Source: Escherichia coli (GTDB taxonomy: Bacteria; Pseudomonadota; Gammaproteobacteria; Enterobacterales; Enterobacteriaceae). From it: a stretch of 64,000 nucleotides of DNA. A model generated the notes under the pieces. That model saw only the letters and a list, made by a program, of their open reading frames with translations, made no database searches and was not told where the DNA came from. Location of the stretch: NCBI RefSeq assembly GCF_003334765.1, contig NZ_QOWT01000002.1. One strand, given 5' to 3'. Position numbers and translations under genes: made by a program. Numbering within the stretch: position 1 is the first letter of the stretch; each line of letters begins with the position of its first letter. This document shows, piece by piece, positions 12,528-19,992 of the stretch.

Positions 12528-12674
12528 ATCGCAACCCGCGCTACATATATCCACCCACACAGGCATATTGAGCGATTTTTGATATTTATTCATCTCCTTA
12601 CGCACTATATTCAGAGCAATAAGTTGCCTCTTTTCATCTTGATTCAGCACAACCTTTGCAACTAAAAGGAGCCC

Positions 12675-13886
12675 ATGATGGTTACAGTTGTCAGCAATTA
12701 TTGTCAATTATCTCAAACGCAACTCAGTCAGACATTTGCAGAAAAATTTACTGTGACCGAGGAATTACTGCAGTCTTTAAAAAAAACAGCGTTATCCGGA
12801 GATGAAGAAAGCATTGAGTTACTGCATAATATTGCGTTAGGTTATGATAAATTTGGGAAAGAAGCTGAAGATATTCTTTACCATATTGTTAGAACCCCAA
12901 CAAATGAGACCCTATCGATTATCCGACTTATCAAAAATGCTTGTTTAAAATTATATAATCTGGCACATATCGCAACCAACTCCCCCCTCAAATCACATGA
13001 TTCAGATGATCTCCTGTTCAAAAAACTATTCTCCCCTTCGAAATTAATGACAATTATCGGTGATGAAATTCCTCTTATATCTGAAAAACAGTCGCTTTCA
13101 AAGGTGCTTTTAAATGATGAGAATAATGAACTGAGTGATGGTACAAACTTCTGGGATAAAAATCGTCAATTAACCACAGATGAAATAGCTTGCTATCTTC
13201 AGAAGATCGCCGCTAATGCAAAAAATACTCAAGTCAATTATCCTACTGGTCTCTACGTCCCCTACTCCACCAGAACTCACCTGGAAGACGCTCTCAATGA
13301 AAATATTAAGAGCGATCCATCATGGCCGAATGAAGTCCAGTTATTCCCCATAAATACTGGCGGACACTGGATATTAGTTTCGCTACAGAAAATAGTAAAT
13401 AAAAAAAATAATAAACTACAAATAAAATGCGTCATATTCAACTCATTGCGTGCACTAGGCTATGATAAAGAAAATTCACTTAAGCGTGTCATTAATAGTT
13501 TTAATTCTGAACTCATGGGAGAAATGTCGAATAATAATATAAAAGTTCATTTAAATGAACCAGAGATAATATTTTTACATGCCGATCTTCAGCAATACTT
13601 AAGCCAAAGTTGCGGTGCATTTGTGTGCATGGCAGCCCAGGAAGTGATTGAACAAAGGGAAAGCAATTCTGACAGCGCCCCCTATACGTTATTAAAAAAC
13701 TATGCTGACAGATTTAAAAAATATTCAGCAGAAGAGCAGTACGAAATTGATTTTCAACATCGACTGGCAAACAGAAATTGTTATTTAGATAAATATGGCG
13801 ATGCAAATATCAATCATTATTATAGAAACTTAGAAATAAAACACTCACAACCCAAAAATAGAGCATCCGGCAAAAGAGTGAGTTAA
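12675..13886 (+). CDS. elaD: ElaD, CE-clan (ULP/SseL-like) cysteine protease with deubiquitinase activity
   Basis: 403-aa ORF; candidate catalytic His (GGHWILVS) and Cys (SQSCGAFVC) in the expected order; very AT-rich coding sequence. Confidence 0.9.
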
Positions 13887-13904
13887 CATCATTGTTAATT
13901 AATT

Positions 13905-13934
13905 CGACCAGTCAGCAAATATGCTGACTGGTCG
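13905..13934. terminator. Bidirectional hairpin between convergent elaD and yfbK
   Basis: Perfect 13-bp stem CGACCAGTCAGCA/TGCTGACTGGTCG with AATA loop, flanked by A/T-rich sequence. Confidence 0.6.
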
Positions 13935-13956
13935 AACATAGTTTGCTAAACAGTCA

Positions 13957-15684
13957 TCACTGACTGATGTCAGTCACACCATCCGCCAGTTCAATCAGGC
14001 GAATAAATTCCGCCCTGTAACCCTGTGGATCTTCCCCTTTTGCCTGCTGAGCCCACTGTTTGATCTGCTGCCAGGAGGTATTGTTCAGGTATTCAGAACC
14101 GCGTAACTTTTGCCCATATGCAGCTACTGCTGCGCGAAAACGCATATCTTCAGAGGGCGCGTTTATTGTTGGCCCCAGCGGGAATTCAACTAACTGACTT
14201 TCTTTTCCCTGCGGGTATTTCCAGCGAATTTTTAACCAGGCCAGTTCTTTCGTTTTGTCCGATTTCGCTAATTTGTTATCCGGGGCATAGCGTAACTTAT
14301 CAATTGATGCTTTTTGCCCGTTCAGCGTTAATTCGAATAACAACGTTATATGTTTGCCTGCGCCTATATCCCCTGCATCAACGTTGTCGTTATTAAAATG
14401 TTCCACCCGAAGTTGGCGCTTTTCATAACCAATCTGACGGTATTCCGTTACCCACGCGGGGTTAAACTCAATTTGCGCTTTGACATCTTTTGCTACGGTA
14501 ATCAACATCTGCCGCATTTCACTATTCAATACTTTCTGCGCTTCAGAGAGGGTATCAATGTAGCTGTAGTTGCCGTTACCAACATCGGCAATTCGCACCA
14601 TCATTGCCTCGTTGTAATTGCTATTCCCCACGCCAAACGTCGACAGAGTAACACCAGACTCCCGCTGTTTTTTGACCATTGATTCAATCGATTTTGGATC
14701 GTCAATGCCAACGTTAAAGTCACCGTCAGTGGCTAATAAAATGCGATTGATGCCGCCCTTAATAAACCCCTTCGTCGCCTGCTGATAAGCCAGTTCCAGC
14801 CCGGCACCGCCATTGGTACTGCCTTCGGCATCCAGCGAATCAATTGCGGCATTAATTTCCGCCTTATGACTCCCGGAGATAGAAGGCAATGCAATACGGG
14901 AGTCGCCAGCGTAGGTCACGATGGCAATGTTATCCTGCTCACGAAGTTCTTTGACCAATAATTTCAACGAAGACTGGATAAGTGGCAAACGTTCATCAGA
15001 AATCATTGAACCAGAAGTGTCGATAAGAAAGACCAGATTAGAAGCTGGTAACTCTTCACTTTTGCGATCTTTCGCCAGGATATCAACTTTCAGCAATGTT
15101 CGCTGTTCATTCCATGGTGCAGGTGCCAATTCGTAGCGCATAGCGAAAGGTATTGGCTTAGAGGCCGGAATAGATTGTTTGTCTTTGATATCCCAATCAG
15201 ACGGGAAATAATTGACTATCTCCTCCACCCGCACAGCGTCTGGCGGAGGTAACAGCCCTTGATTGAGGAAACGCCTTACATTCGCATAACTGCCAGTGTC
15301 AACGTCAAGACTAAACGTCGCCAACGGATTTTGCGCTACCTGCTTAACCGGATTATCATCGAACTGCTGGTAGCGAGCGGTTCCTGGATTTGCGATATGT
15401 GTAGCTTTTGCTTTAGCCGCTCTTGCAAATGTTGGCGCTTCCTGCAATCGCCCCTGTAAAGCCTGTTTGTCTGAATATTGTTGCACTTCTTGCTGGGCCA
15501 AGGCTTTCGCGGCGGCGGCGCTTTGCTCAGCCTCTTTTATTGCAGCTTGCTGCGCGGCAAGCACTTGCTGCTCTGTGGGAGTACTGGGTTGTTGTTGCTG
15601 ACTTTCCTTATTCTCAGGTTGCGGCCCACATCCTGACAAAATCAAACTACTCATAAGCAACATGATTATATTTTTATTTCGCAT
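13957..15684 (-). CDS. yfbK: YfbK, predicted lipoprotein with von Willebrand factor A domain
   Basis: 575-aa ORF; N-terminal signal peptide with lipobox LSGC; Gln/Ala-rich linker; MIDAS motif DTSGSM. Confidence 0.9.
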   Translation of the reverse strand: MRNKNIIMLLMSSLILSGCGPQPENKESQQQQPSTPTEQQVLAAQQAAIKEAEQSAAAAKALAQQEVQQYSDKQALQGRLQEAPTFARAAKAKATHIANPGTARYQQFDDNPVKQVAQNPLATFSLDVDTGSYANVRRFLNQGLLPPPDAVRVEEIVNYFPSDWDIKDKQSIPASKPIPFAMRYELAPAPWNEQRTLLKVDILAKDRKSEELPASNLVFLIDTSGSMISDERLPLIQSSLKLLVKELREQDNIAIVTYAGDSRIALPSISGSHKAEINAAIDSLDAEGSTNGGAGLELAYQQATKGFIKGGINRILLATDGDFNVGIDDPKSIESMVKKQRESGVTLSTFGVGNSNYNEAMMVRIADVGNGNYSYIDTLSEAQKVLNSEMRQMLITVAKDVKAQIEFNPAWVTEYRQIGYEKRQLRVEHFNNDNVDAGDIGAGKHITLLFELTLNGQKASIDKLRYAPDNKLAKSDKTKELAWLKIRWKYPQGKESQLVEFPLGPTINAPSEDMRFRAAVAAYGQKLRGSEYLNNTSWQQIKQWAQQAKGEDPQGYRAEFIRLIELADGVTDISQ

Positions 15685-18542: not shown

Positions 18543-19019
18543 ATGAATTCAAACAATGTCATTCGTTTGATGAATATATTATTTCAGGGAATAATTATGA
18601 CACCTTTAGAACGCATTACCCAACTTGTTAATATCAATGGTGATGTTAATAATCCTGATACTCCTCGTCCATTGTTATCTCTTGAGGATTTTTTTATTGA
18701 CAATAATATCCATGGTTCAATATGTTGCAATGTGATTCCAGAACAATCTCCGCAAGCTATCTATCACCATTTTCTGAAAATACGTGAGCGTAACAATGTT
18801 AGTGATGTTTTGGTAGAAATTACGATGTTCGATGACCCAGACTGGCCCTTTAGTGAAAGTATTTTAGTTATCACCACTGCTTCACCAGAAGAAGTTCAGA
18901 GCTGGTTTGTAGAAGAAATTGCCCCTGATGAGTGCTGGGAAGGATGGTCAGAAGATACGGAGCATGGATGGGTTGAAGTCCCTGTGGGTATGCATCCGGT
19001 TACTTGTTGGTGGGATTAA
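18543..19019 (+). CDS. yfbO: YfbO, uncharacterised small acidic protein
   Basis: ORF up to 158 aa; true start uncertain (alternative ATG 18 codons downstream at 18597); Trp/Asp/Glu-rich C-terminus. Confidence 0.8.
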   Translation: MNSNNVIRLMNILFQGIIMTPLERITQLVNINGDVNNPDTPRPLLSLEDFFIDNNIHGSICCNVIPEQSPQAIYHHFLKIRERNNVSDVLVEITMFDDPDWPFSESILVITTASPEEVQSWFVEEIAPDECWEGWSEDTEHGWVEVPVGMHPVTCWWD

Positions 19020-19074
19020 AACATTTATATAAACAGATAAGCGGATGTTTACATAAATTTTTATGTGAAGGAAC

Positions 19075-19926
19075 ATGATGAAACTTATTCCTCGCAGTAG
19101 TGATATTTCACCTGGCATTGATGGAATTTGCCCGGGGCCTTTTCCTCCGAACGGATTTACCGTACTTACAGATGCAGCATATGGTAACGGAGACTGTTTC
19201 GGTTTGTACTGGCCTATTGGTCAGGAGCATAAACTACCTATAGTGTGCGAAACGTACCATGACGAATGGCGAATCGTACCTGCCTTTTCCAGCATTAAGA
19301 AGTTCGAAGAATGGCTGGAAGTGAATGATGATGATCCCCATGAAAATGGCATCAGCATCGAAGATCAAGACTTTGCAGCAAATCTCTTCCGTGTTGCTCG
19401 GAAATGTCTTTCAACGGGAAGGCTTGATGACGCACTGCCACTGTTACAGCGAGCAACAGAACAATTGCCTGAAGTCAGCGAATATTGGTTAGCACTGGCA
19501 ATCCAGTATCGCCGATGTAAAAAAACAGAAGCTGCAGCACAGGCTGCGCTTAATGCTTATCTTGGCAATTGGGCATTTGGTGTTCCTGACAATAAAGTCA
19601 TTCATTTGCTGTCACAGGCCGCAGATGTCCCGAATTTCCAGGATGATCCTGTGATTCAGTGCATTAAAGAACAAGGATTAGATCTTAGCTTTGGAGGAAC
19701 AAAGGAAAATAATAATTACCCCTTGATGCAGATGTGTGTTGATACTTATTTTGCGCAGAGAAAACCGCTTCAGGCATTAACCCTGTTACATAATTATGCC
19801 TGGATAATGTCCAGTGAAACGACTGCATTTCAGGAACGCTATGATTTTAATATCGATGAATGGCGGGCAAAATTCAGGCAGTTATGTTTAGAGTATTTTG
19901 GCGATAGTCGTACACAGTTCACTTAA
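19075..19926 (+). CDS. yfbP: YfbP, uncharacterised protein
   Basis: 283-aa ORF (starts MM; true start may be the second Met); followed by a strong hairpin terminator. Confidence 0.85.
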   Translation: MMKLIPRSSDISPGIDGICPGPFPPNGFTVLTDAAYGNGDCFGLYWPIGQEHKLPIVCETYHDEWRIVPAFSSIKKFEEWLEVNDDDPHENGISIEDQDFAANLFRVARKCLSTGRLDDALPLLQRATEQLPEVSEYWLALAIQYRRCKKTEAAAQAALNAYLGNWAFGVPDNKVIHLLSQAADVPNFQDDPVIQCIKEQGLDLSFGGTKENNNYPLMQMCVDTYFAQRKPLQALTLLHNYAWIMSSETTAFQERYDFNIDEWRAKFRQLCLEYFGDSRTQFT

Positions 19927-19959
19927 CGCTCTGCGTCTATCTACTATCCCTTCTTTTTC

Positions 19960-19992
19960 AGAAAAACCGCCGAGCATGTCGGCGGCTTTCTG
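19960..19992. terminator. Bidirectional intrinsic terminator between yfbP and nuoN (end of nuo operon)
   Basis: Stem CCGCCGA/TCGGCGG with GCATG loop; minus strand continues UUUUUCUG, plus strand CUUUCUG. Confidence 0.75.

Follow-up and report, generated by a model that had tools for sequence, protein, structure and literature searches.

Did the seven genes that lie between rbn and the nuo operon of Escherichia coli arrive as one piece, or do they differ in age? The question is raised by an AT-rich block at 12530-19990 of a 64,000-nucleotide (nt) stretch of contig NZ_QOWT01000002.1 (assembly GCF_003334765.1), which we call the window. The window aligns at 100% identity to E. coli K-12-type chromosomes, and "K-12" denotes its allele throughout. 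The gene order is rbn, elaD, yfbK, yfbL, yfbM, yfbN, yfbO, yfbP, nuoN. The original prediction, made from the sequence alone, took the block for a single acquired islet bracketed by its own hairpin terminators. We find the block to be AT-rich and accessory, and elaD looks foreign; the idea of one islet delimited by its own terminators did not hold. We favor instead, with a probability of about 0.7, a long-lived variable locus made of three modules of different age over a single insertion.

The predicted gene names agree with the annotation. The predicted protein types fit the family profile matches, which are to an ElaD/SseL deubiquitinase, a vWA lipoprotein and an M28-type peptidase. The features of the block are listed here, with lengths in amino acids (aa) for proteins.

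12480-13983, no strand: elaD module, GC 0.363; E. coli without elaD have a 155-bp spacer instead
12505-12527, no strand: left hairpin, 10-bp stem (AACAGGGCGA/aac/UUGCCCUGUU), starting 18 nt past the rbn stop codon
12675-13886, plus strand: elaD, CE-clan deubiquitinase of the ElaD/SseL family
13903-13936, no strand: palindrome between the convergent elaD and yfbK, perfect 15+15 nt arms (100% complementary) and a 4-nt loop
13957-15684, minus strand: yfbK, vWA lipoprotein (vWA matches and a lipoprotein-type N-terminus)
15822-16793, plus strand: yfbL, M28-family metallopeptidase with an N-terminal hydrophobic segment (from annotation)
16896-17399, plus strand: yfbM, DUF1877 protein, structure 1RYL, core Escherichia gene
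17400-19957, no strand: yfbN-O-P module, GC 0.397, filling the space between the yfbM stop codon and the base of the nuo terminator
17672-18388, minus strand: yfbN, 238 aa, weak tandem UBA-like signals at the N-terminus
18597-19019, plus strand: yfbO, 140 aa, Pfam PF27222 (YfbO)
19078-19926, plus strand: yfbP, 282 aa, a beta-rich N-domain (about residues 20-82) followed by a TPR-like helical domain
19958-19993, minus strand: nuo operon terminator (right hairpin), intrinsic, usable in both directions

Segregation, composition and borders of the block

We surveyed 5,426 complete E. coli genomes and counted a part of the block as present when at least 80% of it was covered. The interval 12000-20500 reached this cover in 931 genomes, which bears out the accessory status of the block. 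Its parts segregate separately: elaD is present in 4,187 genomes (77%), yfbK in 2,514 (46%), yfbL in 3,293 (61%), yfbM in 5,356 (98.7%) and yfbN-O-P in 946 (17%). The elaD figure agrees with the published absence of the gene from phylogroups B2 and G (PMC12575377). Five architectures were read directly in strains: elaD-yfbKLM without yfbN-P; yfbKLM alone; elaD, a yfbK stub and yfbLM; elaD, a yfbL stub and yfbM (O157); and an elaD stub, yfbL and yfbM. The neighbor of yfbM was always nuoN or yfbN. Parts that occur at such different rates and in several combinations, with yfbM as a core gene, contradict the idea of a single islet.

Various E. coli strains carry insertion sequence (IS) elements in this 7.5-kb interval, namely ISCro1, IS1A/IS1B, IS903B, ISEcB1, IS200/IS605 and ISKpn26. 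Such diversity of insertions fits a region under weak selection.

The predicted AT-richness was confirmed. The GC content of the block is 0.417 versus 0.527 for the remainder of the window; 833 non-overlapping windows of equal length elsewhere had a minimum of 0.484 (mean 0.523, sd 0.024), and the lowest-GC stretch of this length in the whole 64 kb begins at 12451. Segment by segment, GC is 0.363 for elaD, 0.397 for yfbN-P, 0.453 for yfbK-L-M and 0.495 for the flank rbn-elaA-elaB. Measured against 51 other open reading frames (ORFs) of the window, the z scores of GC at third codon positions (GC3) were -4.1 for elaD, -1.6 for yfbK, -2.2 for yfbL, -2.0 for yfbM, -3.4 for yfbN, -4.3 for yfbO and -3.3 for yfbP. 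Codon-usage distance (Karlin B) placed elaD, yfbN and yfbO each above all 51 background genes and yfbK within the background range. The predicted deviation is thus strongest for elaD, yfbN, yfbO and yfbP, and does not extend to the codon bias of yfbK. Because segment GC, GC3 and codon distance differ along the block, its AT-richness is genuine yet uneven: there are two strongly deviant segments (elaD and yfbN-P) and a mildly deviant middle (yfbK-L-M).

Both predicted hairpins exist where they had been placed, but they do not bracket one inserted unit. The left hairpin has a folding free energy (dG) of -16.3 kcal/mol (z -4.8 versus shuffles) and is followed by a U-run on the minus strand only, with none on the rbn strand. 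It is missing from the elaD-less strain L003, whose spacer differs there. The left hairpin belongs to the elaD-bearing segment and travels with that module alone. The right hairpin folds with a dG of -20.6 on the plus strand and -22.1 on the minus strand (z about -5 versus shuffles). On the minus strand its stem is followed by the U-run UUUUUCUG; on the plus strand, the U-run for yfbP is only partial. Since the U-run lies 3' of the stem on the minus strand, the right hairpin is the nuoN terminator. It is kept in E. coli strains with and without yfbN-P, and a terminator occupies the same position in E. fergusonii, Escherichia sp. E2748, Superficieibacter and contig L096. The right hairpin is a conserved core feature of the nuo operon and not the edge of an inserted element. 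A third hairpin, which the original prediction did not mention, is the perfect palindrome between elaD and yfbK, likely a bidirectional terminator. A consensus terminator scan listed neither the left nor the right hairpin, and consensus scans for promoters and terminators performed at chance level.

The usual marks of a mobile element did not appear. A tRNA scan found none in the block or at its borders, and family profile scans matched none of the seven block proteins to a transposase or integrase. No convincing target-site duplications or terminal repeats were seen around the modules, and no flanking direct repeats. With the same seven proteins, PADLOC gave no defence-system match at E up to 0.01 and PHROGs no meaningful phage match; Rfam had no match within 11-21 kb (E up to 0.1).

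Origins of the three modules

ElaD matches NCBIfam family NF008812 over its full length with 455.7 bits (cutoff 250). Comparison of K-12 with L003, an elaD-less B2-like strain, placed the edges of the elaD module precisely. Homology ends at 12479, eight bases before the rbn stop codon, and restarts at 13984, 27 bases inside the 3' end of yfbK; between these points L003 has 155 unrelated bases. This 155-bp spacer is 86-90% identical to the rbn-side spacer of two non-coli Escherichia (L095 and L007). Of the two states, the one without elaD is therefore older, and the K-12 state, with elaD, its spacers and the left hairpin, is derived. In strain L006, an elaD stub is fused to the region upstream of yfbL.

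We found no elaD at this locus in the 20+ enterobacterial loci examined. Among the matches listed by a NuoN-based scan of genome contigs there were no Salmonella, Klebsiella or E. albertii. In the searches run, the closest relative of ElaD outside E. coli was Salmonella SseL (29% identity). The gene adjoining rbn in E. fergusonii, and in at least seven genera besides, is cheV, which encodes a 327-345 aa CheW plus response-regulator protein:

11984-12967 of contig L093, also in L008, L009, L017, L029, L034, L038, L011 and L096: cheV, between rbn and yfbK or nuoN

This arrangement was seen in Citrobacter, Enterobacter, Leclercia, Kosakonia, Pseudescherichia, Pluralibacter, Superficieibacter and E. 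fergusonii. By these comparisons, only elaD behaves in a way that looks like a derived foreign insertion, specific to E. coli and placed where cheV lies in others. For the elaD module the idea of a foreign gene fits.

Three further observations concern this module. A tblastn search found no cheV remnant in the window, and cheV is absent without trace from E. coli and two other Escherichia lineages. A 24-nt inverted match, 79% complementary, joins 12448-12471 and 13973-13996 at the two edges of the module, in the 3' ends of rbn and yfbK; by a rough estimate about one match of such strength is expected by chance in 7.9 kb, but its placement at both borders is striking. Plasmid carriage of ElaD, YfbO and YfbP was considered and set aside, as the E. 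coli "plasmid" matches were mostly megabase-sized records, that is, mislabelled chromosomes.

The middle of the block has a different history. Superficieibacter electus, a Pseudocitrobacter metagenome-assembled genome (MAG) and two further enterobacterial contigs have a divergent yfbK-yfbL pair between nuoN and rbn. E. fergusonii has yfbK at the locus and no yfbL, in the order nuoN-yfbN-(191 aa)-yfbM-yfbK-cheV-rbn. YfbM is 97% identical in amino acid sequence in E. fergusonii and Escherichia sp. E2748. Two of the strains without yfbK, L004 and L005, have lost 13997-15552, and the two ends of yfbK remain; O157 has a further gap within yfbL. Since gene ends or stubs remain, the absences of yfbK and yfbL that we examined are internal deletions. 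The comparison thus points to yfbK, yfbL and yfbM as old residents and not recent imports.

The junction between yfbK and yfbL also varies within the species. Over 15553-16083 (the 5' end of yfbK, the spacer and the 5' end of yfbL), identity between K-12 and the alleles of O157 and L004 is 75-81%, as against about 95% for the remainder of yfbL. The divergent promoter region appears to have an allele, either very old or imported, that segregates within E. coli.

The ends of the yfbN-O-P module were set by comparing the junctions of K-12 with those of L002, L003 and L007. Strains without yfbN-P have 22 other bases in its place and no duplication at the junction. This empty junction is identical in most E. 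coli and in L007, a separate Escherichia species; the empty and the filled state are therefore both old. Every YfbN homologue with an examinable locus adjoins nuoN. Amino acid identity of YfbN to K-12 is 71% in E. fergusonii, 87% in E2748, 49% in Superficieibacter and 46% in another enteric. E2748 also has yfbO, and its counterpart of the K-12 yfbM-yfbN spacer is homologous to it; Superficieibacter also has yfbP (62% amino acid identity). The finding of yfbN, yfbO and yfbP genes beside nuoN in E. fergusonii, E2748 and Superficieibacter speaks against a wholesale islet. The simplest reading of these distributions would be an ancient presence of yfbN-P followed by widespread loss.

Gene orders in other enterics support a slot with exchangeable contents. 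Superficieibacter reads nuoN-(328 aa)-yfbN-yfbP-(177 aa)-yfbL-yfbK-cheV-rbn, the Pseudocitrobacter MAG nuoN-PtuA-PtuB-yfbL-(210 aa)-yfbK-rbn, L096 nuoN-yfbN-..-yfbL-yfbK-cheV-rbn, the enteric contig L090 rbn-yfbK-yfbL-yfbO and E2748 nuoN-(409 aa)-yfbO-yfbN-yfbM-yfbL-rbn. In Citrobacter, Enterobacter, Leclercia, Kosakonia and Pseudescherichia, cheV alone lies between rbn and nuoN, and in Pseudocitrobacter faecalis the nuoN-rbn distance is 487 bp. Several genera thus have rbn beside nuoN apart from cheV, in line with an islet, but Superficieibacter, Pseudocitrobacter and two further enterics have yfbK and yfbL at the locus. Overall, yfbK, yfbL, yfbM, yfbN, yfbO and yfbP recur in the same context in Enterobacteriaceae, and elaD does not in the loci examined. 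The slot beside nuoN holds a Septu pair in the Pseudocitrobacter MAG (L013 1864-3786, directly downstream of nuoN; PADLOC, PtuA 568.7 bits and PtuB 235.9 bits), an IS4 transposase with sfnG in Pluralibacter and, in the place of yfbP, a 409-aa gene unrelated to yfbP in E2748. None of the 5,426 E. coli genomes has this 409-aa gene.

We compared the divergence of the modules with that of the flank. Nucleotide identities to K-12 were 91.1% (yfbN), 91.5% (yfbO) and 90.0% (yfbL) in E2748, versus 83.8% for rbn and 84.6% for elaA; 78.5% (yfbN) in E. fergusonii, versus 76.3% and 81.2%; and 70.3% (yfbK), 70.8% (yfbL), 67.9% (yfbN) and 67.7% (yfbP) in Superficieibacter, versus 68.7% and 70.1%. By this measure, the divergence of yfbK, yfbL, yfbN, yfbO and yfbP appears to track that of the flanking rbn and elaA. 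The flank itself is unusual: rbn and elaA are 76-85% identical between Escherichia species, and nuoN and nuoM 96-97%. The zone of deep allelic divergence therefore extends past the AT-rich block. Within the left flank (11044-12487; elaA and rbn), elaA is 82.7% identical between K-12 and the B2-like L003.

Taken together, these results suggest the following history. The locus would lie where two core transcription units end, on the rbn side and at the nuo operon. The first module, elaD with its spacers and left hairpin, would be a derived foreign insertion in the E. coli lineage, at the place that cheV has in E. fergusonii and other Enterobacteriaceae, and B2-like strains without elaD would keep the older spacer. 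The second would be the old, divergently transcribed envelope-protein pair yfbK-yfbL, next to yfbM, which is core to Escherichia; the patchy presence of the pair in E. coli would come from lineage-specific internal deletions. The third, yfbN-O-P, would fill a cargo slot beside the nuo terminator, and versions of it would have been present in the Escherichia ancestor and probably earlier. Most E. coli would then carry a clean yfbN-P deletion allele, and the K-12/HS-type lineage would have kept the module or regained it by homologous recombination within the genus. We infer that exchange proceeds by homologous recombination anchored in nuoN, which is strongly conserved, and in rbn/elaA, with illegitimate deletions and IS hits in addition, and that AT-rich, weakly expressed modules may be tolerated through H-NS silencing. 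No single function unites the block.

Proteins and regulation

In vitro, ElaD acts as a specific deubiquitinase (Catic et al. 2007; PMC1847702). YfbK orthologues carry vWF_A, VWA and YfbK_C domains, YfbL orthologues carry Peptidase_M28, and YfbM matches Protein Data Bank (PDB) entry 1ryl with an E of 8e-109. YfbN matches Pfam UBA_4 at E 3e-3, with weak UBA_4 matches in 5 of 9 family members. No predicted signal sequence was noted for YfbM, YfbN, YfbO or YfbP, the localization of which was not put to test.

All distant homologues of YfbO are 140 aa long and begin at an MTPLERIT motif, and the annotated start at 18597 is therefore right; the mechanical ORF begins at an upstream ATG (an extension over 18543-18596, giving 158 aa). 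Its structure model is confident, and no solved relative was found. By Foldseek, the fold is widespread in small uncharacterized proteins, occasionally fused to SMI1/KNR4 or TPR proteins. YfbP matches Pfam TPR at E 2.7e-5, and its model has a predicted local distance difference test score (pLDDT) of 93.7. The family has an invariant GNGDxFGLYW motif in its rare, conserved N-domain. A profile search with this N-domain in 1.84 billion proteins gave 150 representatives, nearly all of them N-domain plus TPR proteins. A 1,523-aa repeat protein was discarded as a relative of the N-domain, the match being to a short motif alone. A Foldseek search of the PDB with the YfbP model was dominated by TPR proteins and uninformative for the N-domain.

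Relatives on plasmids were considered as donors and rejected as too distant: a relative of the YfbP C-domain on Providencia/Proteus conjugative plasmids (47%) and one of the YfbO core on Priestia plasmids (43%). The former is a 219-aa TPR protein (L101 6902-7561, Providencia rettgeri plasmid pCHS4.1-3), 47% identical to YfbP residues 99-282 and without the N-domain. Its neighbors are an ars operon on one side and small hypothetical genes on the other. The match extends to 25 similar conjugative plasmids, with two places matching by BLAST on each. On the metagenomic contig L099 (2-424 and 3011-3433), a YfbO homologue, with possibly a second 140-aa copy at the contig end, lies beside two ParE/antitoxin pairs.

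Published work bears on regulation and phenotype. The yfbN gene is listed as H-NS-bound in two chromatin immunoprecipitation (ChIP) studies, lies inside an IslandViewer island and is induced 2.8-fold by SlyA overexpression (PMC5797941). The H-NS binding expected of the block was thus found, in published tables, for yfbN; no listing was found for elaD or yfbK-M. Genomic systematic evolution of ligands by exponential enrichment (SELEX) gave an LldR binding peak at K-12 position 2,383,166, inside yfbK, between elaD and yfbL (PMC10272880). Resistance to phage N4 is reported for the Keio deletions of yfbL and of yfbO, and the phenotype was complemented (bioRxiv 10.1101/2025.09.29.679331, 2025 preprint). 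In the literature we found no other phenotype for the block.

Rival histories and known systems

Several points weigh against the history of three modules of different age. Other genera are thinly and unevenly sampled, with no Salmonella, Klebsiella or E. albertii among the scan matches listed. Equal divergence of modules and flank would also fit an old transfer among close relatives, and the yardstick of rbn and elaA is atypical of core genes (76-84% between Escherichia species versus 96-97% for nuoN). K-12-type yfbN-P is almost without diversity (985 of 1,013 matches at 99% identity or more). The K-12 right junction differs from the ancestral-looking post-terminator motif of E2748, E. fergusonii and Superficieibacter; with yfbP swapped in E2748, a recent re-introduction of at least yfbP is therefore possible. 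The Superficieibacter copies are still compositional outliers (GC 0.39-0.48 versus 0.54-0.56 for the flanks), and vertical descent alone is insufficient. The recombination mechanism is our own deduction, and H-NS binding comes from a published table and was not found for elaD or yfbK-M.

How do the alternatives fare? That elaD-yfbP is one acquired islet, inserted between rbn and nuoN and delimited by two hairpin terminators, now seems very improbable. Low GC and GC3 across the interval, the full block in 17% of E. coli genomes and the genera with rbn beside nuoN, with cheV or nothing between, would be expected of it; however, the modules segregate independently around a core yfbM, yfbK, yfbL, yfbN, yfbO and yfbP are found at this position in other genera and are about as diverged as the flank, the hairpins are a conserved terminator of the nuo operon (right) and a part of the elaD module only (left), and the borders have no tRNA, integrase, transposase or target duplication. 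The opposite extreme, in which no horizontal transfer took place and low GC reflects weak expression, H-NS coating and relaxed selection on old vertical genes, we also regard as highly implausible. The age of yfbK to yfbP at the locus agrees with it, as does the GC of the flank rbn, elaA and elaB, which is likewise below the window mean (0.495). It fails on elaD, which is absent from every non-coli locus examined, has SseL at 29% as its nearest non-E. coli relative in the searches run and is replaced by the older surviving spacer in elaD-less strains, and on the unrelated cargo that fills the slot across genera. A more serious contender concerns yfbN-O-P only: a recent introgression, in which another Escherichia lineage would have passed the module to a K-12/HS-type lineage by homologous recombination across nuoN and yfbM. 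We consider this possible, if rather unlikely. It would account for the near-absence of diversity among about 1,000 carriers, the old empty allele (identical junction in most E. coli and L007), the K-12 right junction and yfbP, which differ from E2748, and the deeply diverged yfbN alleles (71-87% amino acid identity) that circulate in Escherichia. Yet no donor above 89-91% turned up in the 5,426 E. coli genomes or the other collections searched, and a single young clade of carriers would be expected to be just as uniform.

A further alternative concerns function: yfbM, yfbN, yfbO and yfbP might be orphan immunity-type genes, remnants of toxin/immunity cassettes kept against the toxins of competitors. 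A YfbO homologue lies in a run of LHH toxin, SUKH, SUKH, YfbO and a 103-aa gene in a 7.8-Mb genome; in Tenacibaculum, a YfbP homologue stands at the start of a row of about ten small ORFs on one strand, a SUKH protein among them, and Leminorella has a similar unannotated row. The YfbO fold is fused to an SMI1/KNR4 protein and a TPR protein, weak SUKH_6 matches occur in 4 of 40 distant relatives of the YfbP N-domain, and the families are sparse, spread across phyla and deeply divergent in their alleles. Nevertheless we judge this reading improbable. There is no toxin gene in or beside the K-12 block; YfbO and YfbP match no immunity family in the Pfam library scanned (YfbP matches TPR only, and the only family on record for YfbO is PF27222); and hhalign of the YfbP N-domain against SUKH gave a probability of 0.5%, a weak test as the SUKH profile has three sequences. 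Five other contexts of YfbO or YfbP homologues were mostly solitary genes among housekeeping genes, YfbM, core and 97% identical across species, is unlike immunity genes, and the N4 phenotype of the yfbO deletion is not predicted. A narrower version, in which the adjacent and co-oriented YfbO and YfbP, perhaps with the UBA-like YfbN, would form a conflict-type cassette of orphan immunity or antitoxin-like proteins that also conditions N4 susceptibility, is speculative, and we would give it slim odds. YfbO has been reported as an N4 host factor, and so has YfbL, an envelope peptidase unlinked to it. If true, it would explain the allelic divergence, the use of the slot for Septu elsewhere, the homologues in an LHH/SUKH array and the SMI1/KNR4 and TPR fusions of the YfbO fold.

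We return to the layered locus. Earlier publications already cover the low GC of this interval, the IslandViewer island and H-NS binding of yfbN, and the strain distribution and enzymology of ElaD. What we add is modest but clear: a layered locus in which only elaD looks like a derived import, while yfbK, yfbL and versions of yfbN-O-P would be old and lost piecemeal. It carries a caution, that AT-richness and patchy distribution alone are no sign of recent horizontal acquisition, and it gives a context for the persistence of a deubiquitinase in non-invasive E. coli and for the N4 resistance of yfbL and yfbO deletions.

SseL is a Salmonella pathogenicity island 2 (SPI-2) type III effector deubiquitinase. 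It belongs with ElaD to the NCBIfam family ElaD/SseL, and the CE-clan activity has been demonstrated in vitro for ElaD, but the two share 29% identity, ElaD fails the SseL equivalog model (114 bits, cutoff 624) and the elaD locus differs from that of sseL. To our knowledge, no secretion route is known for ElaD in K-12. The nuoN-cheV-rbn locus of Salmonella, Citrobacter and Enterobacter-type Enterobacteriaceae occupies the same chromosomal position as elaD; E. coli, in contrast, has elaD or the 155-bp spacer there and no cheV or detectable remnant. With the AT-rich K-12 genes that are silenced by H-NS and counter-silenced by SlyA, yfbN shares membership of the published bound and induced set (PMC5797941). 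Polyimmunity loci (SUKH/SMI1-KNR4, Imm) resemble the block in their small, sporadic, fast-diverging genes in a variable slot, and some homologues lie in toxin/SUKH arrays; the K-12 block differs in having no toxin nearby, no match to an immunity family in the scanned Pfam library and a negative SUKH profile comparison. Such loci, as parts of polymorphic toxin systems, are said to have been described by Zhang, Iyer and Aravind.

The closest comparison is with the integration hotspots and small islets of E. coli, which are variable segments at fixed positions between core genes. Touchon et al., cited in PMC12575377, reportedly treated such hotspots in their comparative E. coli genomics of 2009. 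Like these, the block has a fixed position between core genes, alternative cargo, low GC, H-NS association (yfbN) and IS hits. Unlike them, it is not bordered by a tRNA, an integrase or repeats, and much of its cargo appears old and co-diverges with the flanks. Variable slots between core genes are familiar, and this locus, in a genome whose annotation is complete, is one of them.

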